In this document: piece by piece, positions 3,526 to 63,813 of the stretch
Layout of the letters: every line of letters starts with the position of its first letter
Numbering within the stretch: position 1 is the first letter of the stretch
From: an uncultured Eubacteriales bacterium
GTDB lineage: Bacteria > Bacillota > Clostridia > Oscillospirales > Acutalibacteraceae
Assembly (NCBI GenBank): GCA_934436505.1
Contig: CAKSAP010000001.1
Location: forward strand, 147,347 to 211,346
Length of the DNA stretch: 64,000 bases
Direction: 5' to 3'
Notes under the pieces: model-generated
Database searches by the model: none
Seen by the model: only the letters and a program-made list of their open reading frames with translations
What the model was told of the DNA's origin: nothing
Position numbers and translations under genes: made by a program

Positions 3526-5031
<1,506 letters not shown>

Positions 5032-51806: not shown

Positions 51807-52232
51807 TTACGGAGTGGGCGCAGTATCGCCGTCGGTTGAAGCGTTTGTGCTTTCTGCATTGCTGTCAACGGGAGCCGAGCCATAATAACGTGGGCCGTTG
51901 TCCGAAGAAGCATTGCTTAGCGTGACGGCGGACGGAGTAACAGATTTCTTTTTAGGTTTAGAAGTGTTGGCAAGCTGTAAAAGGAAATAGGAAAACGCCA
52001 ACAATCCGATTATGATTAAAAGAAAACTAAACATATCTTGTATTGTGTAGCTTAAAACGCTAATATTATTGGCTGCCGATGCGGTTGCGTTTTGTATATC
52101 GGTGTATGCGTCTCCACCGTACGTCTTAAAGTCAACACAGTCTCCTCCGTAAAAACCGTCGTAACAATAAATTCCGAGCAAAAAGGATATAACGCTTGAA
52201 ATCATGCCTAAAATTGATGCTGCTTTTTTCAT
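51807..52232 (-). CDS. hypothetical small membrane protein
   Basis: Two predicted TM helices and an S/T/D-rich C-terminal tail. AGGAGGA RBS at the internal Met. No recognisable family. Confidence 0.4.
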   Translation of the reverse strand: MKKAASILGMISSVISFLLGIYCYDGFYGGDCVDFKTYGGDAYTDIQNATASAANNISVLSYTIQDMFSFLLIIIGLLAFSYFLLQLANTSKPKKKSVTPSAVTLSNASSDNGPRYYGSAPVDSNAESTNASTDGDTAPTP

Positions 52233-52486
52233 AAAAATCCTCCTAAAACAAAAAAACAACAATAAATGCGTTTGCAAATATTGTAGTTTTATTATATATT
52301 AATAAATTTTCCGAGTCAACCGAGAATTCTCCGCCGACAAGTTAAAGACAAATTGTTTAATATGGCTTTTATTTTTAGTTAAATAGCCGAAATTTATTAT
52401 TTTGCCGAACGCACGGTTGAATTTGCATTAAAAATAGTATAATATATAGGCGTTAAATTTTGTTTATTAACTTTTGGAGGCATATA

Positions 52487-55003
52487 ATGAACTATTCGCT
52501 TACTAAAAAGAAGGCAAAAGAGCTTGTTGAGGCAAAGCTCTCGCACTTCATGGGAGTTTCTCCCGAGGAAGCAACGGACGAACAATACTACAAGGCTATC
52601 GCTCTTATCGTTCGTGATATGATGAGCGCAGGCAGAGCCGACTTTACGGCGGATGCGGAGAAAAAGGGCACAAAAAGAGTTTATTATCTCTGCATGGAGT
52701 TCCTCATGGGTCGTTCGCTTAAAAACAATCTTTACAACCTCAATCTTACGGAGGTTTTTGAAAGCGTTTTGAGCGATTACGGCGTAAAGCTCGACAATAT
52801 ATATGAATGTGAGCCCGACGCAGGTCTCGGCAACGGCGGACTCGGCAGACTTGCCGCTTGCTATCTTGACGGTCTTGCAACGCAGGGATATCCGGCAAGA
52901 GGCTACTCAATCCTCTATGAAGCAGGCATTTTCAAGCAGAAGCTTGTTGACGGCTGGCAGACGGAGCTTCCCGATTTCTGGCTTCCCGGCGGAGAGGTTT
53001 GGCTTGTTCCCCACGAGGAGAGCGCACTTGAGGTTCGCTTTGACGGCGAGGTTGTCGATTCCTGGGAAAATCAGTTCCACCACGTTGAAATTGTAAACTA
53101 CAACCCCGTTAAGGCTGTGCCTTATGATATGTATGTTTCGGGTAAGGACGGCAAGGGTATTTCCGTGCTTCGTCTTTGGGCTGCCAAAGCACCTGCTCTT
53201 GATATGACGCTTTTCAATCAGGGCGATTACATGAGAGCTATGGAAAGAAATGCTATGGCAGAGGTTATTTCAAAGGTTCTCTATCCCGCAGACAATCATC
53301 CCGAGGGCAAGTCATTGAGACTTCGTCAGCAGTATTTCTTGGTATCCGCTTCAATTCAGGATATTGTTCACAAGCATCTTCGCACCTACGGAACACTTGA
53401 CAATCTTCCCGAAAAGGTTGCTATTCATATCAACGATACTCATCCGACGCTTGCAATCCCCGAGCTTATGAGAATTATGCTTGACGAATGCGGCTACGGC
53501 TGGGATGACGCTTGGAATATTGTTACAAAGACGGTTGCATACACAAACCATACCGTTATGAAAGAGGCTCTTGAGTGCTGGCCCGAGGACCTTTATAAAC
53601 GCCTTATGCCGAGAATTTGGCAGATTACAAAGGAAATTGACAACCGTTTCAGAAACTTTGTATGGCAGGCAACAAACAACGCAGATCAGGTTGAGAGAAT
53701 GGCAATTATGTCAAACGGCGTAGTCAGAATGGCTAACCTTTGCGTTGTCGGCTCTCATTCGGTAAACGGTGTTTCGGCACTTCACTCCGAAATTCTTAAA
53801 GAAACCGTGTTCAGCGATTTCTATGCGCTCACACCGAGCAAGTTTAAGAATGTTACAAACGGTATTGCTCACAGACGTTGGCTCTGTCAGTCAAATCCGA
53901 GACTTACCGAATATGCACAGTCGCTTATCGGAGACGGCTTTGTTAAAAATGCCGAAGAGCTTAGCAATTTGCGTAAGTTCACAGACGATAAAAAGGTGCT
54001 TGCGAAAATCGGCGAGATAAAGCACGATAACAAACAGCAGTTTGCGGCTTACGTTAAGAAAACGACAGGCGTTGAGCTTGACCCCGATTCGATTTTTGAC
54101 GTTCAGGTTAAGCGTTTGCATGAGTATAAGAGGCAGAATCTCAATGCGTTGAATATACTTGCGGATTATCTTGAAATCAAGGATAATCCCGACGGCGAGT
54201 TCACACCGCACACCTATATCTTCGGCGCAAAGGCGGCTTCGGGCTACTTTATGGCGAAGAAGATAATTTCCTTTATCTGCGCTCTCGGCGACCTTATCAA
54301 TAACGACCCCGATGTCAAGGGCAGATTAAAGGTTATATATCTTGAAGATTACAATGTAACAATGGCTGAAAAGCTTATGCCTGCGGCTGATGTTTCCGAG
54401 CAGATTTCTCTTGCAGGAACAGAGGCAAGCGGTACGGGCAATATGAAGCTTATGATTAACGGTGCTGTTACACTCGGCACAATGGACGGTGCAAACGTTG
54501 AAATTCACGACGCTGTCGGCGAGGATAATATTATTATCTTCGGTATGAGCACACCTGAGGTTGACGAGCTTAAACGCCGTGGCTATAATCCGATGAGCTA
54601 TTATAACAACAATGCGGAAATTAAGCGTGTTGTAGATTATATTTCACAGAACGGAATTGCAGGCAAGCAGTTCCCTGAAATCGCAAACATTATAAATTGT
54701 GATCCCTATATGGTTCTTGCTGATTTTGCCGATTACAGAAGAGCGCAGAAGCATATGATTGAGCTTTATAAGGACAGGGAAAAGTGGAACAGAATGTCGC
54801 TTATGAATATCTCCGGTGCAGGCAGATTTGCCGCTGACCGTGCGATTAACGAATACGCAAGAGATATTTGGCACACAAAATCGGCTTTTGAAAAGGAAGA
54901 AAATCCCGAAAAGCCCGTAGCGGAAAAAGCTCCTGCTAAAAAGACTGCTGAAAAGAAAACGGCGGAAAAGAAAGCACCCGCTAAAAAATCAGCGAAGAAA
55001 TAA
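52487..55003 (+). CDS. glgP: glycogen/maltodextrin phosphorylase (GT35)
   Basis: PLP site EASGTGNMK and GT35 conservation. Unusual 35-aa K/A/E-rich C-terminal extension (PAKKTAEKKTAEKKAPAKKSAKK). GGAGG RBS. Confidence 0.9.
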   Translation: MNYSLTKKKAKELVEAKLSHFMGVSPEEATDEQYYKAIALIVRDMMSAGRADFTADAEKKGTKRVYYLCMEFLMGRSLKNNLYNLNLTEVFESVLSDYGVKLDNIYECEPDAGLGNGGLGRLAACYLDGLATQGYPARGYSILYEAGIFKQKLVDGWQTELPDFWLPGGEVWLVPHEESALEVRFDGEVVDSWENQFHHVEIVNYNPVKAVPYDMYVSGKDGKGISVLRLWAAKAPALDMTLFNQGDYMRAMERNAMAEVISKVLYPADNHPEGKSLRLRQQYFLVSASIQDIVHKHLRTYGTLDNLPEKVAIHINDTHPTLAIPELMRIMLDECGYGWDDAWNIVTKTVAYTNHTVMKEALECWPEDLYKRLMPRIWQITKEIDNRFRNFVWQATNNADQVERMAIMSNGVVRMANLCVVGSHSVNGVSALHSEILKETVFSDFYALTPSKFKNVTNGIAHRRWLCQSNPRLTEYAQSLIGDGFVKNAEELSNLRKFTDDKKVLAKIGEIKHDNKQQFAAYVKKTTGVELDPDSIFDVQVKRLHEYKRQNLNALNILADYLEIKDNPDGEFTPHTYIFGAKAASGYFMAKKIISFICALGDLINNDPDVKGRLKVIYLEDYNVTMAEKLMPAADVSEQISLAGTEASGTGNMKLMINGAVTLGTMDGANVEIHDAVGEDNIIIFGMSTPEVDELKRRGYNPMSYYNNNAEIKRVVDYISQNGIAGKQFPEIANIINCDPYMVLADFADYRRAQKHMIELYKDREKWNRMSLMNISGAGRFAADRAINEYARDIWHTKSAFEKEENPEKPVAEKAPAKKTAEKKTAEKKAPAKKSAKK

Positions 55004-55056: not shown

Positions 55057-55075
55057 TTCGATTGTTATATCTGTT

Positions 55076-56047
55076 TTACACTCTCTCGTAATCTTTTCTT
55101 ATAAAGATTTTGATAGCGAGCATAACGCCGATAAACATTGAAGTACCGCCGACAAGAACGTCGGAGAAGAAGTGCGCACCGCATACAATTCGGCTGATTG
55201 CGACCGTTCCCGTAAAGATTACAGAAACGAAATAGAAAAGCACCTTGTATTTAACCGTGTTGTACTTCTTGAAGAGGTGCGGAAGTGCAAGCAATGCATA
55301 TGTAGTACCTGCGGCGCAGGTGTGTCCCGACGGGAATGAACGGTATGCGTCCTTACCGACCTTGTGACCGTTTACCGAGGGGATATAAAGCGGAGACTTC
55401 TCTGTGGGCATTGTGTATTTCTGATACCAGCGATGAAAATTGGTGTGCTGTGTATCGCCGAGGAAGTTCATTGTTCTGTATCTCGGACGGCACATAATAT
55501 TTTTGATTATGTTTACAATTAAGTTTGCAAACGCTGCCGCAAAAATGATTATAAACGAATATTTAAGAAGAGCCCTTGCGGTTTTGTCGTCAACCCTTGA
55601 AAACGCATTACAAATAAGCTCGCCGAACGCTATCGCAATGAAAACGAAGATAACCTTTGCAAATACGGTAGATGTAAAGCCCTCAATATCGGCGTGCCTT
55701 TCGGCGTAGCCCACGGTGTCGGTTACCAATATGTACATACAAACGACCGATGCGATATTTGATGCTATTGAGCCTAAAATGCGAAGCGGTTTGATTTTAC
55801 TGCGCTTAGTGTTCGTGTAAATGCAGGCGAACGCAATACTTAAAAACAGATAGACGGGACAGGAGCCGATACATTCAAAAACAGCGGCAAAAACGCTGTT
55901 TGTGAAATATGCGCCCGTGTCAAGTTTGACGAGAATTTCGCTCACACGCAGGTCATAAACCGTAGCGAGTGCAAGCAATGCGCCGAAAACAACAGCAAAA
56001 AGGCATACGCCGATGACTGTGTTTCGTTTTGTGTTTGTCTTTTCCAT
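55076..56047 (-). CDS. PAP2-superfamily membrane phosphatase
   Basis: KxxxxxxRP (IMCRPRYR), PSGH, and SRxxxxxHxxxD (SRIVCGAHFFSD) motifs. Multiple TM helices. Confidence 0.8.
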   Translation of the reverse strand: MEKTNTKRNTVIGVCLFAVVFGALLALATVYDLRVSEILVKLDTGAYFTNSVFAAVFECIGSCPVYLFLSIAFACIYTNTKRSKIKPLRILGSIASNIASVVCMYILVTDTVGYAERHADIEGFTSTVFAKVIFVFIAIAFGELICNAFSRVDDKTARALLKYSFIIIFAAAFANLIVNIIKNIMCRPRYRTMNFLGDTQHTNFHRWYQKYTMPTEKSPLYIPSVNGHKVGKDAYRSFPSGHTCAAGTTYALLALPHLFKKYNTVKYKVLFYFVSVIFTGTVAISRIVCGAHFFSDVLVGGTSMFIGVMLAIKIFIRKDYERV

Positions 56048-56198
56048 TAACCTCACCCTTTATTGAAATATTTGTGTCTTGATTTTAACACATAAATATA
56101 AATAAAACAATACCGTCTTTGATTGACAAACCTGCGTATATTTGGTACAATTATCACGCTCGTTTGAGAGAAAGAGCAACAATTTAATAAGAATATAC

Positions 56199-56273
56199 GC
56201 CTCCTTAGTTAAATGGATATAATAAACCCCTCCTAAGGGTTAGTTGTGAGTTCGATTCTCGCAGGGGGTGCCA
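56199..56273 (+). tRNA. tRNA-Arg (anticodon CCT), CCA encoded
   Basis: Hand-folded cloverleaf. Acceptor GCCTCCT/AGGGGGT (two GU pairs), U8 A9, D-arm GTTA-AATGGATA-TAAT, anticodon stem AACCC/GGGTT with loop CUCCUAA (U33, CCU, A37), 4-nt variable loop, T-arm GTGAG-TTCGATT-CTCGC, discriminator G, CCA. Confidence 0.72.
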
Positions 56274-56281
56274 AAACTTTG

Positions 56282-56309
56282 AAAAGAGCCGAGCAACGGC
56301 TCTTTTGTT
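56282..56309 (+). terminator. hairpin terminator after tRNA-Arg
   Basis: AAGAGCCG-AGCAA-CGGCTCTT followed by TTGTT. The 3' half overlaps the 5' end of the disrupted second tRNA copy. Confidence 0.5.
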
Positions 56310-56478
56310 AAATGGATATAAGAACCTGAACGCAGAAGCGTTCAGAACCTTGTTACTCGCAAAACTCATAATAAGAACCTGAATTCTGACGAATCCAGAA
56401 CCTTGTTACTCGCTTTGCTCGTAATAATAAACCCCTCCTAAGGGTTAGTTGTGAGTTCGATTCTCGCAGGGGGTGCCA
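56298..56478 (+). pseudogene. second, disrupted copy of tRNA-Arg(CCT), interrupted by a 106-bp insert in the D-stem
   Basis: 5' 24 nt (GGCTCTTTTGTTAAATGGATATAA) match copy 1 at 19/24. The 3' 51 nt (TAAACCCCTCCTAAGGG...GGGGGTGCCA) are identical to copy 1. The 5' acceptor-strand mutations would weaken the acceptor stem. Confidence 0.55.
56322..56427 (+). repeat. two tandem 53-nt hairpin-forming units inserted in the tRNA pseudogene
   Basis: Unit 1 (56322-56374) and unit 2 (56375-56427) both read GAACCTGA[hairpin]CAGAACCTTGTTACTCGCnnnnCTCnTAATAA. The hairpin stems differ by co-varying changes (CTGAACGC/GCGTTCAG vs CTGAATTC/GAATCCAG). Confidence 0.6.
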
Positions 56479-56487
56479 AAAGCACAA

Positions 56488-56577
56488 CCGAAAAGCCTAG
56501 TAAAATCAAGGCTTTTCGGCTTTTTTTATTTTTGCGAGAAAACAACAAAAACGAGAAAATCACAAATTTTCATTAGC
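56488..56577 (+). repeat. direct repeat A (approximately 90 nt; terminator hairpin plus conserved tail), partner of repeat B
   Basis: CCGAAAAGCCT-loop-AGGCTTTTCGG (11-bp stem) followed by CTTTTTTTATTTTTGCGAGAAAACAACAAAAACGAGAAAATCACAAATTTTCAT. About 85% identical to 58131-58220. Confidence 0.6.
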
Positions 56578-56720
56578 AAATTTTCCGTCAGCTAATGGAA
56601 ATTAGAACTAACGTCGCCCGCCTTTCAGGTGTACGGGTTGCTAATAAAAATTAGCAGGATTTTCGCTATTTTGTTAATGAAAATGCCCTCTCTGCTAATG
56701 AGAGAAAAAACGAGCAAAAT
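56571..56720. promoter_or_regulatory. array of GCTAATG/CATTAGC inverted-repeat operator-like sites
   Basis: CATTAGC-n13-GCTAATG (56571-97), TGCTAAT-AAAA-ATTAGCA (56639-56), CTCTGCTAATGAGAG and CTTGCTAATGGACAAG palindromes, within 150 bp upstream of a small RHH-like ORF. Confidence 0.4.
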
Positions 56721-56846
56721 TCTTGCTAATGGACAAGGCGGTTGTTACCCTGTTAATTCGTTCATTTAGGGGTGGTCAAGAGACAATCGCACACTACCTA
56801 TATGCCCTTTCTTATTATATAATTGCGGTAACAGGAGGTGGTTGTT

Positions 56847-57026
56847 TTGAAAGAACAGAAATATCACCTATATCTTTCCAAGGACGAATACAGCGAAGTG
56901 TTGCAATCACTTATCCGTTTGAAGAACAGCCTGATAGCACAAGGCAGATACACGGACGCAGTAGATGATATTCTTTGCAAGGTGCTTTCAGCCAAGAAAA
57001 GACAGTTCAAAATCAAATATATCTGA
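56847..57026 (+). CDS. small hypothetical protein, possibly a ribbon-helix-helix (CopG/Arc-like) DNA-binding protein
   Basis: 59 aa from a TTG start with an AGGAGG RBS 8 nt upstream. The N-terminal alternating pattern KYHLYLSKDEY followed by two predicted helices resembles the RHH fold. Assigned by pattern only. Confidence 0.35.
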   Translation: MKEQKYHLYLSKDEYSEVLQSLIRLKNSLIAQGRYTDAVDDILCKVLSAKKRQFKIKYI

Positions 57027-57107
57027 ACACGAATAAAGACCGCCTACACTTTTGTAAGCGGTCTTTGCTAATTTAGAGTAAGTTCGACAAACTGGAATTT
57101 GACTTGC

Positions 57108-57455
57108 CTATTTTCTTAAAATCTCATGTGGAGCTTCTATTTCATTTGCCAAGGTATGCTCTGTTAATTCTGACATCAATTTCAATTTTTTATTAATCAA
57201 TGGTCGCATACAATTAGGAACATGTTCCTGATGCGCTCTGTGGATTGCTACACATTCCTTACAGTTTCCGTGATAACGACAGGCTTTCAGGCAAGGACAG
57301 TGATCTTTGTCTTTATACTCCTTACGAAATTCCGCTGCAAATTCTTCTTGCAGTCTCAGTCCCTCGACACGGTTTCCCTTATGAAATTCTACCATTGCAT
57401 CCAGTTCTTTCTGGTTCCCTTCAATCTTCATGTTATTATAGCGCCTCCATTTCAA
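57108..57455 (-). CDS. hypothetical cysteine/histidine-rich protein (putative metal-binding)
   Basis: 115 aa from a TTG start (the internal Met at 57431 is an alternative). HCPCLKACRYHGNCKECVAIHRAHQEHVPNC cluster. AT-rich gene. Confidence 0.45.
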   Translation of the reverse strand: MKWRRYNNMKIEGNQKELDAMVEFHKGNRVEGLRLQEEFAAEFRKEYKDKDHCPCLKACRYHGNCKECVAIHRAHQEHVPNCMRPLINKKLKLMSELTEHTLANEIEAPHEILRK

Positions 57456-57513
57456 CTATTCCTCATTTTCTGATAAATTCCTATTTTCTCAATTCTCCAA
57501 ACTGGAATTTAGA

Positions 57514-57882
57514 TCATGATTCATATGGATAGTAGTGTTCTGCCTTCGACTGAAATTCACATAATTTTAATATTTTCATATCCTTATCAAAATCTGCTAT
57601 TGTAACACCATCAAAGCCATCTATCTTACCATCATAATTACATCTGAAGTACCATTCAACAATTAACGTTTGGTTTTGCTCGAATATTCTTTTGATTGTC
57701 CATTCCAATACTTGTCCCTTATTATTCCAATTTTCAAACCATGTTACAATTTGTGATAAGCCATGATATTCAGGTCCATAGCATTCACTATACAAAGCAT
57801 TTTCAGAAAAAGTCTGTTTTACAATCTCAACATCGTTATCTAACCAAGACTGAAAATATTTCTTAATGACATCTACTTTCAT
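57514..57882 (-). CDS. NTF2-like / SnoaL-like fold protein
   Basis: 122 aa starting MKVDVIKKYFQSWLDNDVE with W/Y-rich cone-fold signatures. GGAGGA RBS. AT-rich composition. Confidence 0.55.
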   Translation of the reverse strand: MKVDVIKKYFQSWLDNDVEIVKQTFSENALYSECYGPEYHGLSQIVTWFENWNNKGQVLEWTIKRIFEQNQTLIVEWYFRCNYDGKIDGFDGVTIADFDKDMKILKLCEFQSKAEHYYPYES

Positions 57883-58130
57883 ATTATCCTCCACAAATTC
57901 AAATTTGTCTTTCTCTTAATTTCCTATTATACACCAAAATTATGAATATTTCTACCCGCCGTCTATTGACCTTAGTTTCGAGGAAAATAGGCGGCTTTTT
58001 GTTATTTTCAAAAATTTTTTTCAAGATTTTTTGAAAAAACACCCCCCAAAAACGCTCTCCCATTTCAAACAAGTGAAAAAACCACGAAAAATTAGCAGGT
58101 TTTGGACGAGAATTTACTAACAGTGAAATC

Positions 58131-58220
58131 CCAGAAAAGCCTTGATTGTTCTTGGTTTTTCGGCTTTTTTTATTTTTGCGAAGAAACAGCAAAAACGAAA
58201 AATCGCAAACTTTCATAATC
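58131..58220 (+). repeat. direct repeat B (degenerate copy of repeat A)
   Basis: CCAGAAAAGCC...TTTCGGCTTTTTTTATTTTTGCGAAGAAACAGCAAAAACGAAAAATCGCAAACTTTCAT. About 85% identical to repeat A over the 3' 65 nt. The hairpin portion is degenerate. Confidence 0.6.
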
Positions 58221-58244
58221 GGTCAACAAATTTATTTGTAATTA

Positions 58245-58272
58245 TTGACAACAAAAACGAGCGATGTATAAT
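58245..58272 (+). promoter_or_regulatory. near-consensus sigma-A promoter for the GPH transporter
   Basis: TTGACA at 58245-50, a 16-nt spacer, TATAAT at 58267-72, then a GGGGG RBS before the ATG at 58314. Confidence 0.55.
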
Positions 58273-58313
58273 ATTATTGTTCAATTTCGACAATTTGGTT
58301 AAGGGGGCTGTTT

Positions 58314-59714
58314 ATGGAAACGCATGGAATTAAATTTAAGGATAAGCTCGGTTATGCTCTGGGCGATATGGGCGGAATACTCTCGTTTAGTCTTGTTTCT
58401 TCGTATTTAACAATGTTTTATACCGATATTTTGGGCATTTCAGCCGCAAGCATAACAATCTTAATGCTTATTGCCAGAATTTGGGACGCTGTAAATGACC
58501 CTATGTGGGGTTCGTTTATAGACTCGAGAAAGCCGACAAAGCACGGCAGATTCAGACCCTATATTTTAGGTGCTTCTTTTCCGCTTGCCGTGGGTGCGTT
58601 TTTAATGTTTTATAAAATTCCCGGATTGTCAAACAGTCAATATTTAATCTATGCTTACATAACATATATTTTCTACGGTATGATGTATACCGGCGTCAAT
58701 ATCCCTTACGGATCTTTGGCAAGTGCCGTTACAGATGACGAGGTTGAACGTTCATCTCTTTCAATGTGGCGCTCTGTCGGTGCGGGAATCGGCGGCTTGC
58801 CGGCGCAAATTCTCATGCCGCTTGTTGTTTTCACGACTGTAATCAATGCCGACGGCAGTTCGTCAAAGGTTCTTGACGGGAACAAGCTTTCATTGTGCGT
58901 AGGCGCAATTTCGGTTTTAACGATTGTTCTTTTTATTATCCACTTTAGATTGACAAAGGAGCGAATTCAGCTTCCGCCGACTCAAAAAACAAGCGATTAT
59001 AATTTGCTGAAAACCGTCAAAGTCCTTGCTAAAAACAAGCCGTTTGTTGTGCTTTGCTTCATATCTATGTTTCTTATCTGTTTTCAAATGTACACACAAA
59101 CGTTTTATAATTATCTTTTCAAAAATTACTTTGAGAAGCCGGGTCTTTACAGCATTGTTACCATATGCACCTATTTGCCTATGGCGTTGTTTTTGCCGTT
59201 TATGGGTAAGCTTATCAGAAAATTCGGCAAAAAGGAAATTTGCGGCGCAGGCTTGGGCTTTGCCTTTGTTATCAGCGCTCTGATGTTCCTTTTACGTTTT
59301 ACCCCGTTTGCCCACAATCCTTATGTTTTCCTCGGACTCGTGTTCCTTTCGGGTGCAGGTCAAACCTTCCTTGTGCTTGAGGTTTGGGCACTTGTTATGG
59401 ACGTTACGGATTATCAGGAGCTTTTGTCGGGCAGACGTGAAGAGGGCACGACCTACAGTATATATTCTTTTGTACGCAAGCTGGGTCAAACGGCCGCAGG
59501 CGCAGGTGTTCCGGCAGTGCTTGGAGCTATCGGCTACAAAGGCACGCAAGCCGTACAATCACAGCAGGTTTTAACGAAAATGTTTGATGCGGCAACAATA
59601 GTGCCGTCGGTCATTCTTTTGCTTATGTTTATTTTGACGACCTTTTGCTATAAGCTGGGCAAATCGGAAATCGAGGATTTGCACAAGCAGCTTTACGGCA
59701 ATAAAAACGATTGA
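58314..59714 (+). CDS. glycoside-pentoside-hexuronide (GPH):cation symporter family sugar transporter
   Basis: 466 aa, 12 TM helices, GPH signature LGYALGD...DAVNDP. Confidence 0.85.
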   Translation: METHGIKFKDKLGYALGDMGGILSFSLVSSYLTMFYTDILGISAASITILMLIARIWDAVNDPMWGSFIDSRKPTKHGRFRPYILGASFPLAVGAFLMFYKIPGLSNSQYLIYAYITYIFYGMMYTGVNIPYGSLASAVTDDEVERSSLSMWRSVGAGIGGLPAQILMPLVVFTTVINADGSSSKVLDGNKLSLCVGAISVLTIVLFIIHFRLTKERIQLPPTQKTSDYNLLKTVKVLAKNKPFVVLCFISMFLICFQMYTQTFYNYLFKNYFEKPGLYSIVTICTYLPMALFLPFMGKLIRKFGKKEICGAGLGFAFVISALMFLLRFTPFAHNPYVFLGLVFLSGAGQTFLVLEVWALVMDVTDYQELLSGRREEGTTYSIYSFVRKLGQTAAGAGVPAVLGAIGYKGTQAVQSQQVLTKMFDAATIVPSVILLLMFILTTFCYKLGKSEIEDLHKQLYGNKND

Positions 59715-61064: not shown

Positions 61065-63367
61065 TGAGATTTAATCATATTTTTAAGCTTACAAACGAAA
61101 ACGAAACGCACCGTGAATACAAGTGCGATAACGTTAATATCAACATTGATTTCATAAGCGGCAGTGCTTTGCGTGTGGCGGTTTTTAACGATAACGCCGA
61201 AATGCTGCCGACCTTTACCGTAAATCCAAACAATAACCTGTCCTCTCTCGGCAGAAGCAGATTATCCGTGGACGGGTTTGACTGTGTTGCGCCTGTTGTA
61301 GAGAAATTTGAAAATAAAGAGAAATTTGTCCTTGATTGCGGCGTTACCGTTGACCTTGATTTGAATAATTTTATTTTGACTTACAGTAAAGAATCAAAGC
61401 TTTTGTTCGGGGACAGGGCACCGCTTGCCTATAATTTTGAAGGCGAATTCGGAAACGGGTCTTACCATTATATTACAAGGGAAGATGACGAGCACATTTT
61501 CGGACTTGGCGACAAAAGCGGTCTGATAAATAAAGCAGGTCAGGTTTACCGCATTGAAACGGCGGACAGTATGGGCTTTGACGCAGAAAAAACAGATCCC
61601 CTGTACAAACACGTTCCGTTTTACATTTGCGAAAATTCTGTTGGTGCTTACGGCATTTATTACGATACAGCAGACACCTCTTTTGTTGATTTAGGCAGAG
61701 AAATCAATAATTATTACTGCCATTTCAAGTATTTTAAGACGGATGACGATTGCTTGGTTTATTATGTCTTTTTCGGAAGCAAGCTTTCTGTTTTACAGCA
61801 ATATGCTCGCTTGTGCGGTAAGCAGGCTTTTCCGCCTAAGTGGAGCTTCGATTATTGCGGCAGCACAATGGCATATACCGATGCGCCCGACGCACAAAAT
61901 CAGATGCAGGGCTTTTTGGATAAAATTAAAGACCTTGATTTGAGTTGCGGCGGATTTTATCTTTCATCGGGATATACTTCAATAGGCAATTTGCGCTGCG
62001 TTTTTAATTGGAATTATGATAAGTTTCCCGATCCTCAAAAATTCGTTGCCGATTACAATAATGCAGGAATACATTTAATTCCGAATATCAAGCCTGCTTT
62101 TTTGACCTCGCATCCAATGTATAATGAGCTGGCGGAAAAAGGATTTTTCGTTAAAAATGCAGACGGAACGCCCTATGTAACGCAGTTTTGGGACGGTGTG
62201 GGCAGTTATTTGGACTTTACAAATTCCGACGCCTTCGATTTTTGGGGCAGTCAGGTAACCGAAAAGCTGCTTGATTTCGGAATTGACGCTACATGGAATG
62301 ATAATAACGAGTTTGATATTAAGGCAACCGACGCTGTTGCCGCAGGCTTTGGCAAAAAAGTGTCTGCGTGCAGAATTCGTCCGATTTTAACTTATTTAAT
62401 GGTGTTATCTTCATACAAGGCGCAAATGAAAAAATACCCCGAGAAGCGTCCGTTTTTATCTACGAGAAGCGGAAACAGCGGTGTCAGACGCTTGGCGCAA
62501 ACCTGGTCCGGCGATAATTTCACTTCGTTTCACGATTTGCGTTTTTGTCATTATGTAGGAATGACAATGTCACTTTCAGGCTTTTATTTTTACGGTCACG
62601 ATTTAGGAGGCTTTTCAGGCAAAATGCCTTCCGAAGAATTGCTTTTAAGATGGATGCAGCACGGCGTATTTGAGCCACGCTTTACAATTCATTCTTGGAA
62701 CGGCGACGGCTCTGCCACTATGCCGTGGAGCTATGAAAGCGGCTTGTGCGGCGCAAAGGCGATTTTAAGACAACGCAAAAGCCTGATACCTTATTTATAT
62801 AATTGCGCTTATAACAGCGTGGAAAATGATGTTCCCGTGCAAGCTCCGCCTTATATTTATTACGATGATGAAAATATTGACGTAAATACCGATGCGTTTA
62901 TGCTTGGCAGAGATGTTTTGACAGCCTGCGTGCTTGATGAGGGTGTAGCTCATGTGTCTGTTTACCTACCAAAGGGCGACGGTTGGTATCTGAATGAAAC
63001 CGGAAAGCTCTATTGTGGCGGAAGCACGGTAAAGGTCGATTTGCCGCCGGATAAGCCTGTGCCTTATTTTATTCGTTCCGGCTCTGTTTTTCCCGTCGAT
63101 GAGGGCGAGTGCTCATACAAATCCGCAGAAAAAGTCGTTTTTACCGTTTATCCTGTTAAAAACGGCAAATTTACAGCCCGTTATTTTAATGATGACGGCG
63201 AGTCCTTTGAATACTTAAAAAACAACTGCGTAAAATTAGAGTTTGATGTAAATTGCGATAACGGAAATGTGAATGTTGTTGTAAATAATAAGGGTAATGT
63301 AAAATTAACACCTGAAATCAAGCTTGTTTCTACGGATGTGCGTAAGTTGAATGTTACGGTAAAATAA
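61064..63367 (+). CDS. GH31 alpha-glucosidase/alpha-xylosidase family enzyme
   Basis: About 767 aa with GH31 regions (ATWNDNNEF nucleophile region, YGHDLGGF acid/base region). The ATG overlaps the esterase stop (TAATG). The ORF-track start lies upstream inside the esterase gene. Confidence 0.85.
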   Translation: MRFNHIFKLTNENETHREYKCDNVNINIDFISGSALRVAVFNDNAEMLPTFTVNPNNNLSSLGRSRLSVDGFDCVAPVVEKFENKEKFVLDCGVTVDLDLNNFILTYSKESKLLFGDRAPLAYNFEGEFGNGSYHYITREDDEHIFGLGDKSGLINKAGQVYRIETADSMGFDAEKTDPLYKHVPFYICENSVGAYGIYYDTADTSFVDLGREINNYYCHFKYFKTDDDCLVYYVFFGSKLSVLQQYARLCGKQAFPPKWSFDYCGSTMAYTDAPDAQNQMQGFLDKIKDLDLSCGGFYLSSGYTSIGNLRCVFNWNYDKFPDPQKFVADYNNAGIHLIPNIKPAFLTSHPMYNELAEKGFFVKNADGTPYVTQFWDGVGSYLDFTNSDAFDFWGSQVTEKLLDFGIDATWNDNNEFDIKATDAVAAGFGKKVSACRIRPILTYLMVLSSYKAQMKKYPEKRPFLSTRSGNSGVRRLAQTWSGDNFTSFHDLRFCHYVGMTMSLSGFYFYGHDLGGFSGKMPSEELLLRWMQHGVFEPRFTIHSWNGDGSATMPWSYESGLCGAKAILRQRKSLIPYLYNCAYNSVENDVPVQAPPYIYYDDENIDVNTDAFMLGRDVLTACVLDEGVAHVSVYLPKGDGWYLNETGKLYCGGSTVKVDLPPDKPVPYFIRSGSVFPVDEGECSYKSAEKVVFTVYPVKNGKFTARYFNDDGESFEYLKNNCVKLEFDVNCDNGNVNVVVNNKGNVKLTPEIKLVSTDVRKLNVTVK

Positions 63368-63588
63368 AAATTTTATCTTTTGAGCTGTTACGGATAGTGC
63401 AGACGGAACAAAAAGCTTGCTTGATACAGTGAATTTAATTCAAAACAACAAACCGATTTCGTTTTTAGCGGAGTCGGTTCGTTTTTTGATTTGAAATATA
63501 GCTTTAACTGTTGACAATAAAAGTGGGGCTGTGCTAACATTATACAATAATAAGAAAGCAAAATTTATAAGGTTTCGGGGGAATGAAA

Positions 63589-63813
63589 ATGACTCTTGAT
63601 ATGCTTAAAAACGGAGAAACGGCGGTTATAAAAACCGTGGGCGGAGAGGGTGCGCTCAGACTGCGCTTTCTTGATATGGGACTTATTCCGCACACAGCCG
63701 TAACTCTTCAAAAAACCGCACCTATGGGCGACCCGATAGAAATAAGGGTGCGGGGCTATGAGCTGACGCTTCGAAAAGCGGACGCAAGACTTATAGAAGT
63801 TGAAAAGATATAA
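63589..63813 (+). CDS. feoA: ferrous iron transport protein A
   Basis: About 74 aa SH3-like FeoA. GGGGG RBS. Confidence 0.8.
   Translation: MTLDMLKNGETAVIKTVGGEGALRLRFLDMGLIPHTAVTLQKTAPMGDPIEIRVRGYELTLRKADARLIEVEKI

Follow-up and report, generated by a model that had tools for sequence, protein, structure and literature searches.

An islet behind a tRNA-Arg(CCT) gene that is very probably a decayed, integrase-less miniature of a gut-Clostridia ICE

Introduction

CIMEs are defined as decayed ICEs or IMEs that keep attL and attR, and accretion is likewise defined in the same source (PMC5704250). Passages of that paper, with reference to Pavlovic 2004 and Bellanger 2011, describe CIMEs of Streptococcus thermophilus that stem from ICESt1 and ICESt3. 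Tyrosine integrases target tRNA genes, and the split gene is restored by the island (PMC4383910).

Here we describe an islet at positions 56488-58220 of a 64-kb stretch of DNA (the window, the whole 64,000 nucleotides that were analysed). It was noticed in a preliminary description of this DNA; our data confirm the observation and partly support its interpretation. Like a CIME, the islet is derived from an ICE and does not contain integration and transfer genes, and mobilisation would likewise be expected only with the help of a functional relative. A tandem arrangement with a related element at the same site is seen in sister copies, but not in the window. Both attL and attR are kept by sister copies (L012, L014, L017, L039 and most of 45 metagenome contigs), while the window copy has lost its right attachment site and therefore falls outside the CIME definition. 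The CIMEs of ICESt1 and ICESt3 target the 3′ end of fda, whereas the islet family targets the anticodon loop of tRNA-Arg(CCT); also unlike those CIMEs, a single deletion derivative is found over many species-level contexts. We consider it very probable that the islet is a decayed, integrase-less miniature of a gut-Clostridia ICE family that arose by deletion, spread, and underwent a later fusion in the lineage of the window. As a decayed ICE of the same type as cis-mobilizable elements, it represents a known sort of decay product and is a real but fairly ordinary case.

Results

Two direct repeats enclose an AT-rich islet

The tRNA locus, the two repeats (A and B) and the gene downstream are arranged as follows:

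56199..56273, + strand: tRNA-Arg(CCT), 75 nt, AT-rich "U" type (ARAGORN; Rfam tRNA 55.9 bits)
56277..56481, + strand: second, partial tRNA-like copy (repeat search; Rfam tRNA 25.2 bits, below threshold)
56488..56577, + strand: repeat A, with post-tRNA terminator hairpin (56488-56519), T-run and about 55 nt
58131..58220, + strand: repeat B, a hybrid with the 5′ stem from the element's right-hand hairpin
58245..58272, + strand: transporter promoter TTGACA-16-TATAAT
58314-59714: MFS_2/GPH transporter gene, with its promoter at 58245..58272

A repeat search of the 64-kb window found the direct pair 56490-56558 / 58134-58202, so that A and B have the same orientation, as had been described. Global alignment of 56488-56577 with 58131-58220 gave 73 identical positions out of 91 (80%), including a 25-nt exact core. 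The mismatches are concentrated in the hairpin loop, and the loop of B is inverted relative to A (the reverse complement of hairpin A matches hairpin B at 27 of 32 positions). The identity of about 85% given earlier is reached once the flipped loop is allowed for, but not in a straight alignment. The 25-mer core is present exactly twice in the 64-kb window and in none of 100 shuffles, so that the repeat does not represent a common intergenic element here. With only these two copies in 64 kb, the view of A and B as a dispersed intergenic repeat was rejected.

Both repeats open with a stable hairpin followed by a T-run (−17.8 kcal/mol and z −5.8 for A, −12.5 kcal/mol and z −3.3 for B), in agreement with the terminator-like structures proposed for them. 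The promoter-like segments said to end both repeats were not recovered, as a promoter scan found no promoter within A or B; the transporter promoter, a perfect TTGACA-16-TATAAT that had been placed in B, is part of resident sequence 25 nt past it. Rfam analysis of positions 55900-58400 returned the tRNA plus chance-level matches only, so that A, B and two 53-nt units described below are not explained by known RNA. A MITE or IS derivative would have terminal inverted repeats and a short target-site duplication, whereas the ends of the islet are direct. Inversion is confined to the self-complementary hairpin, and intact copies terminate with an 8-bp direct core within a tRNA gene.

The impression by eye that the islet is AT-richer was correct: its GC content is 35.8% compared to 43.2% for the window (7 points lower), and GC3 of the SnoaL gene is 27% versus 43-51% in the genes on either side. 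The composition of the islet is foreign.

The islet is missing from most conspecific contigs

Comparison with 24 conspecific contigs revealed presence or absence of the islet at this locus. About 21 of them have an empty site with a single repeat copy, one has the islet, and two have other cargo (LysR/ChrA) behind the same kind of hairpin. In L003 the LysR/ChrA cargo is flanked by two hairpin copies. The full left end of an ICE (59-aa gene, DUF3784, ParA, ParB) is present at the same junction in the conspecific L022. An assembly artefact at 56478/79, where L002 has a 100-N gap, was rejected since the region is contiguous in the independent assemblies L018, L019, L022 and L023. Flank divergence was also rejected as a sign of import of the whole locus, as the strains differ by 3-4% everywhere.

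These data leave practically no room for a native, vertically inherited locus, in which ordinary accessory ORFs would lie between A and B as a local duplication of the tRNA terminator. It is true that the post-tRNA terminator segment is resident in all strains and that the hairpins are plausible as terminators. The segment between them, however, is missing from most conspecific contigs, has a GC content 7 points lower than that of the window, is 92-98% identical to DNA beside tRNA-Arg genes in other contexts, apparently in other species, and is collinear with both ends of a 49.6-kb ICE.

The islet matches both ends of an ICE from Monoglobus

A complete parent ICE of about 49.6 kb was found in Monoglobus pectinilyticus (NZ_OY725736.1, 419.0-468.9 kb). 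A 487-aa tyrosine integrase is encoded just inside its right end, with an HTH_17 protein beside it, the cargo comprises tet(O/32/O) and tet(40), and its conjugation genes are annotated as CD1110/CD1115 family. The cargo hints at a possible relationship of this ICE with TnK10 from Clostridium saccharolyticum K10 (PMC10696588). The left end of the ICE matches window positions 56434-57100 and 57888-58077, and its right end matches 58076-58141 at 100% identity. The segments of the islet that adjoin the point where both parts meet are:

57895..58076, − strand: conserved ICE-left intergenic region (slot promoter and 5′ UTR, TATAAT at 57926-57931)
58076..58077, no strand: deletion junction (CAAACAAGTGAA/AAAACCACG) at which the ICE left part meets the right arm, some 48 kb with the integrase gene being gone
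58077..58141, + strand: ICE right arm, last ~65 bp (AAAATTAGCAGG..TTTACTAACAG..CCCAGAAAAGCC; identity to L034 and L038)

The ICE and the islet are collinear at 90-100% identity over the left arm, the 59-aa gene, the region of the slot promoter and the terminal right arm. In contrast, about 48 kb with the genes for partition, adhesin, relaxase, type IV secretion, tetracycline resistance, regulators and integrase are absent from the islet. To judge from this alignment, the islet is the two ends of the ~49.6-kb ICE fused together. The right arm (58077..58141) is also 100% identical in L034 and L038, where it is located about 220 bp downstream of the 487-aa integrase gene; L034 represents a second right end bearing an integrase. 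A scan of viral contigs with the right arm yielded two loci (L034 and L035), and scans with the P arm and with the left arm gave 0 matches in these contigs. Pfam search of the ORFs of the islet (56488-58220) revealed no integrase, relaxase or type IV secretion gene, and tblastn of both related integrases against the 64-kb window gave no match, in line with the absence of an integrase noted before.

The host tRNA-Arg(CCT) of the Monoglobus ICE is split at CTCCTAAG with the halves 49.6 kb apart, and within its anticodon loop the ends of the ICE form an 8-bp direct repeat. In intact copies of the family the crossover core CTCCTAAG likewise lies in the anticodon loop and a host-specific tRNA 3′ half follows the right end; the same core is present in the anticodon loop of tRNA-Arg(CCT) of the window. 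The attachment core is therefore this short sequence, and not the 90-nt repeats that had been taken as boundaries of integration.

The islet family shares the tRNA target with the Islander model, and a displaced tRNA fragment is present at the far end of intact sister copies. The integrase is located beside one end in the parent ICE, as in the model, while the window copy has neither an integrase nor a displaced tRNA fragment near B. The Monoglobus ICE has its own complete tRNA-Arg gene with promoter. In some family members the place of the split host tRNA-Arg gene is taken by a complete tRNA gene that the element brings along, whereas the model has the split gene rebuilt by fusion.

One deletion junction is shared by copies at many tRNA-Arg genes

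The junction at 58076/77 is common to L012, L014, L017, L039 and 45 metagenome contigs, and was found in only 1 of 185,579 species-representative genomes. Apart from a few (L045, L048), these copies of the mini-element continue from the junction through hairpin and P arm to the core, behind which lies a host-specific tRNA 3′ half. Their downstream flanks represent at least eight different tRNA-Arg contexts. The left junction of L064 is classical and consists of the host 5′ part, the core, the element 3′ half and A. L041, L044 and L067 are tandem arrays, in which a tRNA 3′ half and then another left end come after the right end of a mini-element. The identical junction, the intact right ends and the at least eight tRNA-Arg contexts indicate that the mini-element spread after the deletion had occurred.

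The same distribution could in principle result from decay in situ, if a full ICE shrank in place and the deleted allele replaced resident full ICEs elsewhere by homologous recombination, for instance following transformation or co-transfer by conjugation. This course of events fits the full ICE left end at the same locus in L022, the long conserved arms flanking the deletion would allow allelic replacement, and the resident-like repeat A points to homologous recombination in the window. Furthermore, copies with the same junction differ in their slot ORFs, which implies recombination among copies. This explanation requires, however, that a full ICE was present earlier at each of at least eight distinct tRNA-Arg loci and was then replaced, and tandem arrays as in L041, L044 and L067 are the expected product of site-specific integration into an occupied site. 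We consider decay in situ unlikely, though still to be taken seriously, and favour spread of a mini-element that had formed by one deletion. The earlier alternatives of a remnant or a cassette mobilised in trans come close to this: the segment is confirmed as foreign DNA that stems from site-specific integration of an element at tRNA-Arg, but it is a deletion derivative of a ~50-kb ICE that is present in many tRNA-Arg genes.

Repeat A resembles resident sequence and repeat B is a hybrid

The islet is located downstream of tRNA-Arg as reported, with the partial tRNA-like copy directly before it. This second copy opens with a terminator hairpin, continues with the D-arm-like GTTAAATGGATAT, and contains two 53-nt tandem units (56318-56370 and 56371-56423). 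In its last 58 nt (56424-56481), which the islet directly follows, the 3′ part of the tRNA is repeated exactly. Repeats derived from the tRNA were found only at 56219-56276 and 56424-56481, both left of the islet. The second copy is missing from L021, which belongs to the same species. In L012, L058 and L064 the mini-element is located in the anticodon loop of the equivalent tRNA-like copy; in some hosts this duplicate may take insertions instead of the tRNA-Arg gene. At the conspecific empty sites the tRNA is a different, canonical 77-nt tRNA-Arg(CCT), and the alleles of islet-bearing and empty strains diverge from a point about 12 nt before the start of the tRNA gene. This difference between the U and the canonical allele is not accounted for by integration.

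Repeat A is homologous to the left-arm segment behind the tRNA in the ICE and the mini-element. It is about 95% like the empty-site sequence of L001 from the same species; its similarity to the A segments of L039 and the Monoglobus ICE is about 75%. Unambiguous element sequence begins at about 56573 (TTTTCAT/TAGCAA) and not at 56488. We read repeat A as a copy of the post-tRNA terminator region that precedes element-derived DNA. Plain integrase-mediated integration generates a left junction composed of the host 5′ half and the element 3′ half. In the window and in L008-type copies a complete host-type tRNA is instead directly followed by A. Since the tRNA before A is complete and A is nearest to the sequence of the species itself, either homologous recombination at entry or a later gene conversion has to be assumed.

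In repeat B the window matches the intact element as far as CCCAGAAAAGCC and resident hairpin sequence from there on: the flipped loop, the 3′ stem and the T region correspond to the post-tRNA segment of the resident DNA. At the right end one would expect a P arm, the CTCCTAAG core and an orphan tRNA half, all of which are absent. By this comparison, repeat B is a resident copy fused to the right-hand hairpin of the element. The right attachment site was lost in this fusion, and the window copy is therefore probably immobile. A similar hairpin fusion is present in L048.

The structure of the repeats also bears on a literal reading of the earlier interpretation, in which a small site-specific cassette inserts directly behind the tRNA gene and has A and B as its attL and attR or as a long duplication of its target. 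The recombinase moving it would recognise either the hairpin or the 3′ end of the tRNA. A and B are indeed direct repeats enclosing a foreign segment, empty sites have one repeat copy, the unrelated LysR/ChrA cargo of L003 also lies between two hairpin copies, and hairpin-to-hairpin fusions recur (L048). About 45 other copies, however, run about 50 bp past the right hairpin to the CTCCTAAG core and host-specific tRNA 3′ halves, and the parent ICE ends in the same way, its 8-bp direct repeat lying in the anticodon loop. Moreover, A in the window is of the resident type and forms no hybrid site, and B is devoid of the sequence found right of the hairpin in intact copies. Such a cassette is therefore very improbable, and we retain the decayed ICE miniature as explanation.

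The islet contains a one-gene cargo slot

The remaining features of the islet, from left to right, are:

56571..56760, + strand: GCTAAT(G/A) repeat cluster, in a region conserved in the ICE left end
56847..57026, + strand: 59-aa ORF, first gene of the ICE left end (homologue WP_102364675.1 at the Monoglobus ICE left end)
57035..57066, no strand: terminator-like hairpin with 14-bp stem, between the 59-aa ORF and the cassette slot
57087..57102, + strand: motif ACAAACTGGAATTTGA, boundary of the cassette slot (sequence comparison with L019 and L021)
57103..57496, − strand: Cys/His-rich single-gene unit (ORF 57108-57431, 107 aa, 6 C and 8 H)
57497..57511, + strand: second direct motif copy CCAAACTGGAATTTAGA (repeat comparison)
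57514..57882, − strand: SnoaL_2 (NTF2-like) cargo gene in the slot, 122 aa (PF12680, E=6e-10; GC 31%)

TGCTAATR has six matches in the 64-kb window, four of them within 56571-56731, and the GCTAAT array is also present in L008, L012, L037 and L039. These repeats are candidates for arm-type sites of the integrase or for an operator of the 59-aa protein. The 59-aa protein has no match in Pfam, NCBIfam or PHROG. Its AF2 single-sequence model (pLDDT 76.6) has a beta-alpha-alpha-beta arrangement, and Foldseek of this model against PDB gave no match with E<0.4, so that the RHH-like label is not confirmed. The Cys/His-rich and the NTF2-like ORF had been named correctly.

The slot spans ACAAACTGGAATTT to its inverted copy, and an imperfect inverted motif copy is present at 57903-57918. 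The boundary motif of the slot units is a 13-14-nt sequence (AAACTGGAATTT) that was also found at single-gene units of many unrelated ICE/IME accessory regions. In the conspecific L019 and L021 a 6,033-bp tyrosine-integrase IME is inserted exactly at ACAAACTGGAATTTGA, which also forms its direct repeat; the attachment site of the L019 IME integrase may be AAACTGGAATTTGA. The conserved region 57895..58076 on the other side of the slot contains a hairpin with a T-run at about 57960-58003 and is 90.7% identical to L037 1228-1418, which lies between DUF3784 and ParA.

The slot of other copies holds different ORFs: DUF3784 in the Monoglobus ICE compared to the SnoaL and Cys/His genes in the islet. 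Mini-elements of other species do not contain the Cys/His unit. Elsewhere this unit of about 400 bp occurs with about 99% identity in many unrelated mobile-element contexts. By these comparisons the islet is composite, the Cys/His gene being a separately inserted 0.4-kb unit. The Cys/His protein was found identical in 57,765 index blocks of public assemblies, and the SnoaL_2 protein in 15,271. The Cys/His protein has no match in Pfam, NCBIfam or PHROG; its NCBI name is "LPS biosynthesis protein", and a large protein search with the 59-aa and the Cys/His protein returned only this label or "hypothetical". In a phage collection, one phage record contained the Cys/His unit and no other part of the islet.

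Similar to an integron, single-ORF units are swapped at one position under a fixed promoter, with a short motif at their boundaries. In contrast to an integron, the islet has neither attI nor an IntI-type integrase, imperfect palindromes of the attC type (57-141 bp) are absent, and the slot units have their own RBS, some also their own promoter, unlike promoterless cassettes. Homologous recombination between the conserved flanks explains the slot exchanges more simply than an integron-like exchange.

Discussion

The full ICE uses the 8-bp core CTCCTAAG to integrate into the tRNA-Arg(CCT) anticodon loop. One illegitimate deletion at a 2-nt microhomology would have removed about 48 kb and left a mini-element of 1.2-1.9 kb. 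Its left arm would have kept the tRNA 3′ part, the terminator hairpin of A, the GCTAAT repeats and the 59-aa gene, followed by the one-gene cargo slot with its promoter, and its right arm the last ~170 bp with the second hairpin copy, the P arm and the core. The circular junction of this mini-element after excision would read GGGGATTTGTAGGGA..GCCCCTCGGGGGGCTT-CTCCTAAG-CGGTAGGTCGGGTG..GCCA-AAAACTCCGCCGG. We infer that it reached many tRNA-Arg genes by use of the integrase of full-length relatives, probably in tandem with them as a CIME does, or acted on in trans. In the lineage of the window, the right-hand hairpin presumably recombined with the resident terminator hairpin downstream of the tRNA, which would have created repeat B at the cost of P arm, core and orphan tRNA half. 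The 0.4-kb Cys/His unit would have entered the cargo slot at the motif AAACTGGAATTT. Lacking both the right attachment site and an integrase, the window copy would be a fixed passenger, removable only by homologous recombination between A and B.

A bolder proposal, which we hold to be rather doubtful, sees the mini-element as a successful non-autonomous parasite, reintegrated time and again by the helper integrase of a tRNA-Arg-specific ICE family, and the slot motif as the attachment site of the 6-kb IME family. If true, the slot would make up a platform for site-specific cassette exchange that is new for gut Clostridia and has no earlier description.

The islet itself has little weight for the window, being a probably immobile leftover with at most three small cargo genes; its repeats are accounted for. 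Our data document an integration hotspot at tRNA-Arg(CCT) in human-gut Clostridia that is used by a tetracycline-resistance ICE family, one internal-deletion derivative of a tet-carrying ICE that spread to many hosts, and a cargo slot with swaps of single genes, two of which encode proteins found identical in 15,000 to 58,000 index blocks of public assemblies. This is of use for the annotation of gut metagenomes and for tracing the decay of resistance ICEs and their attachment-site scars. The named hosts of relatives are Monoglobus pectinilyticus and an uncultured Ruminococcaceae bacterium.

Two direct repeats enclose three small genes beside tRNA-Arg

The islet at 56488-58220 is bounded by two direct repeats, which a repeat search recovered where the preliminary description had placed them (56490-56558 pairs with 58134-58202). 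In a global alignment, A and B are identical at 73 of 91 positions and share an exact 25-nt core, of which the 64-kb window holds two exact copies and 100 shuffles none. Mismatches are mostly found in the loop of the hairpin that opens each repeat, and the loops of A and B are reverse complements of each other. Both hairpins are stable (−17.8 and −12.5 kcal/mol for A and B), each with a T-run behind it.

56199-56273, tRNA-Arg(CCT)
56488-56577, repeat A
between A and B, plus strand, 59-aa ORF (ORF call)
between A and B, minus strand, 107-aa ORF with 6 Cys and 8 His (ORF call)
between A and B, minus strand, 122-aa SnoaL_2 ORF (ORF call and family search)
58131-58220, repeat B

The three small ORFs noted before were thus found between the repeats, and the islet is indeed AT-richer, with a computed GC content of 35.8% versus 43.2% for the window. 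GC3 is 27% in the SnoaL gene and 43-51% in the adjoining genes. Family and fold searches gave no support for the label "RHH-like" of the 59-aa protein. Promoter-like segments had been assigned to both repeats, and the transporter promoter to B; a promoter scan found none inside A or B and placed a perfect promoter at 58245-58272, past B. Two more GC dips (about 32%) occur in the window at 52000-52600, upstream of the glycogen phosphorylase gene, and at 63200-63600.

The locus is variable within the species

Contigs of the same species were found by the identical transporter protein, and 24 of them were read. They represent three alleles and diverge from the window by 3-4% overall. The preliminary description had proposed looking for related strains that lack the A-to-B segment and keep a single repeat copy, and this is the state of about 21 of the 24 contigs: there is no insert, and canonical 77-nt tRNA-Arg(CCT), a single hairpin-plus-T segment and the transporter promoter follow each other. 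One contig (L002) has the window allele. Two have an L003-type allele with other cargo at the islet position, flanked by hairpin copies at both ends and with a left arm that is a diverged version of the islet left arm. Window-type islets were seen at the same locus in the further conspecific contigs L018, L019 and L023 and partly in L021, while L022 shows the left end of a full integrative conjugative element (ICE) in place of the islet.

The 3.2-kb insert of L003 (2560-5815) encodes a LysR regulator, two chromate transporter genes and a 176-aa ORF, and both its hairpins have the flipped loop of repeat B. L002 is otherwise 100% identical to the window and has a 100-N gap (4066-4165) exactly at the join of tRNA copy and repeat A (window 56478/79), which shows that these repeats interrupt short-read assemblies; independent assemblies run through the position without a gap. 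Empty-site strains have an extra gene for a 285-aa Bro-N-domain protein between glycogen phosphorylase and PAP2 (L001 3719-4614), which the window (55058-55075) lacks.

Copies in other genomes end in the tRNA anticodon loop

The identical SnoaL protein was present in 15,271 index blocks. Islet copies of 89-98% identity, missing the Cys/His gene, lie directly 3′ of tRNA-Arg(CCT) in contigs with unlike flanks (FeoB..LexA, AsnB..PGK and others). At the right end of three such copies (L012, L014, L017) a second hairpin copy is followed by about 40 bp (ATTTGTAGGGA..GCCCCTCGGGGGGCTT), by CTCCTAAG and by a tRNA-Arg 3′ half with a sequence peculiar to each host. On the left, the host tRNA 5′ half of L017 and L012 stops at CCTCCTAAG and element sequence comes next; L064 has the classical form of this junction, with host 5′ part, core (the short crossover sequence), element-type 3′ half and hairpin A. 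These junctions place the crossover site in the anticodon loop, a well-known sublocation for tRNA-targeting tyrosine integrases (PMC4383910 gives the general model).

The islet resembles an ICE without its middle

The right-arm sequence, scanned against viral contigs, led to L034, in which window 58076-58141 (100% identical), hairpin, P arm (the stretch between hairpin and core), core and tRNA 3′ half occur in series, about 220 bp downstream of a gene for a 487-aa tyrosine integrase. Genes for an HTH_17 protein, a PemK toxin and a Y-family polymerase lie ahead of the integrase. A search of a plasmid collection matched the left part of the islet in Monoglobus pectinilyticus NZ_OY725736.1, and a complete ICE of about 49.6 kb was read there, in this order:

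1, host tRNA 5′ half, last bases CCTCCTAAG
2, AATATGTTATAACG.., promoter, complete tRNA-Arg gene
3, hairpin A and GCTAAT repeats
4, 59-aa gene, DUF3784, ParA/ParB, SpaA-type adhesin
5, SNF2, MobC/relaxase, VirD4-like (CD1115 family), VirB4-like (CD1110 family)
6, TnpV, tet(O/32/O), tet(40)
7, regulators, PemK, 487-aa integrase
8, right arm, CTCCTAAG, host tRNA 3′ half

This integrase belongs to the tyrosine recombinases and is distantly similar to the structure of the Tn1549 integrase. The ICE family may include TnK10 (PMC10696588), a conjugative transposon with tet(O/32/O) from a human gut Clostridium.

Window 56434-57100 and 57888-58077 match the left part of the ICE up to a point between slot gene and ParA, and window 58076-58141 matches its right end. 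Judged from these alignments, the islet is probably the ICE minus its middle. The deletion junction, CAAACAAGTGAA/AAAACCACG, has a microhomology of two bases, and the same junction was found in L012, L014 and L017, in one GTDB species representative (L039, uncultured Ruminococcaceae bacterium) and in 45 metagenome contigs. In nearly all junction copies hairpin, P arm, core and tRNA 3′ half come next, and 3′ half and downstream flank combine in at least 8 different ways. Since identical recurrence of a deletion at 2-nt microhomology is unlikely, a single deletion appears to have given rise to a mini-element of 1.2-1.9 kb, later present in many tRNA-Arg genes. Three contigs show a tandem array of mini-element, tRNA 3′ half and second left end, an arrangement known from cis-mobilizable elements and accretion (PMC5704250). 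Spread of the mini-element by means of a helper integrase, acting in trans or in tandem, is moderately favoured over homologous replacement of resident ICEs.

Repeat B is a hybrid and the window copy has lost its right end

An eight-way alignment was used to trace A and B. Repeat A resembles the single-copy segment of the empty site (L001) at about 95%, but the A segment of the Monoglobus ICE or L039 at only about 75%, and changes to element sequence at TTTTCAT/TAGCAA (~56573). Repeat B matches the intact element through CCCAGAAAAGCC, the 5′ stem of the right-hand hairpin, and is then resident hairpin plus T segment, as in L003 and L001. B is thus probably the product of recombination between the right hairpin of the element and the homologous resident terminator hairpin, which would have removed about 95 bp comprising P arm, core and orphan tRNA half. 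L048 has a similar hairpin-to-hairpin fusion with another right partner. Five contigs of this species extend to the B junction; all share it, and so it arose once. The earlier reading as a remnant of a site-specific element at tRNA-Arg is retained; the 90-nt repeats as its insertion boundaries are not, as A is resident-like to ~56573, B is a hybrid, and intact copies end at the anticodon-loop core.

The window copy lacks both a right attachment site and an integrase; tblastn with either related integrase gave no match in the 64-kb window. Since the ~95 bp are gone and an integrase is lacking, this copy should be immobile, save for loss by homologous recombination between A and B. On its left side A directly adjoins an entire tRNA (or tRNA-like copy) of host type, instead of the element-type tRNA 3′ half that simple integration would leave. 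Gene conversion would produce this arrangement, as would an entry via the A-like resident segment by homologous recombination.

The islet works like a cis-mobilizable element and shares that kind of descent. Sister copies fall under the definition, but the window copy does not, because attR is lost. Membership tests led to rejection of MITE, integron and self-sufficient tRNA island. The islet is solidly explained and rather ordinary; the cargo slot with its motif, the element-borne tRNA replacement and the tRNA-like duplicate with 53-nt units are possibly worth separate study.

A one-gene cargo slot

The islet is composite. The Cys/His gene unit is missing from the mini-element elsewhere, and the unit of about 400 bp occurs with ~99% identity in many unrelated mobile-element contexts.

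57103-57496, Cys/His gene unit, edges ACAAACTGGAATTTGA and CCAAACTGGAATTTAGA

It was also seen in the phage record PV036429.1 (30769-31168; human-faeces phage genome), 99.3% identical over 400 bp. Exactly at 57102, the conspecific contigs L019 (1252-7318) and L021 have a 6,033-bp integrative mobilizable element (IME), at whose two ends the motif AAACTGGAATTT(G)A is directly repeated over 14-20 bp. The IME encodes TnpV, PadR, DUF2812, a MobA/MobL relaxase, an excisionase-family protein, an HTH protein and a 432-aa tyrosine integrase. In the window the motif is at 57087-57102 and 57497-57511, flanking the 0.4-kb Cys/His unit. It also edges single-gene units in many unrelated ICE/IME regions (L010, L011, L024, L026, L030, L032, L033).

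The position after the motif is a one-gene cargo slot (window 57087-57918), with the motif on one side and an imperfect inverted copy of it on the other. Equivalent slots were found in L017, L049, L063, L084 and the Monoglobus ICE (L037), and at least 5 different ORFs occupy the slot behind one conserved promoter and 5′UTR.

same-junction copies, SnoaL
same-junction copies, 180-aa protein
same-junction copies, 326-aa oxidoreductase-like protein
same-junction copies, 176-aa protein
full ICE, DUF3784

Homologous recombination between the conserved flanks is the simpler explanation for these exchanges; a site-specific mechanism is a possible alternative.

tRNA alleles and tRNA-like copies

Two tRNA-Arg(CCT) alleles exist at one locus in one species (~96% ANI; window 56188-56273 versus L001 5728-5808). 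Occupied strains have an AT-rich 75-nt U type and empty strains the canonical 77-nt type. The alleles diverge from about 12 nt upstream of the gene, and integration does not account for the difference. Inserted DNA was seen downstream in every contig of the 75-nt type readable there.

Some members of the ICE family leave both host tRNA-Arg halves orphaned, with no rebuilding by fusion, and bring an entire tRNA-Arg(CCT) gene of their own, promoter included, which lies 83 bp in from the left end (Monoglobus ICE, L037 200-380 and L038 1880-1960; L017 7250-6990). The host may rely on the tRNA-Arg of such an element while it stays integrated.

A second tRNA-like copy, not called by ARAGORN, is at window 56277-56481. 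Its components are a terminator 3′ strand and D-arm sequence, a tandem pair of 53-nt units (compensatory changes distinguish their hairpins) and 58 nt that repeat the tRNA 3′ part exactly. It is absent from the conspecific L021. One-unit versions occur in other hosts (L012, L058, L064), where the mini-element lies in the anticodon loop of the tRNA-like copy and the upstream tRNA is intact.
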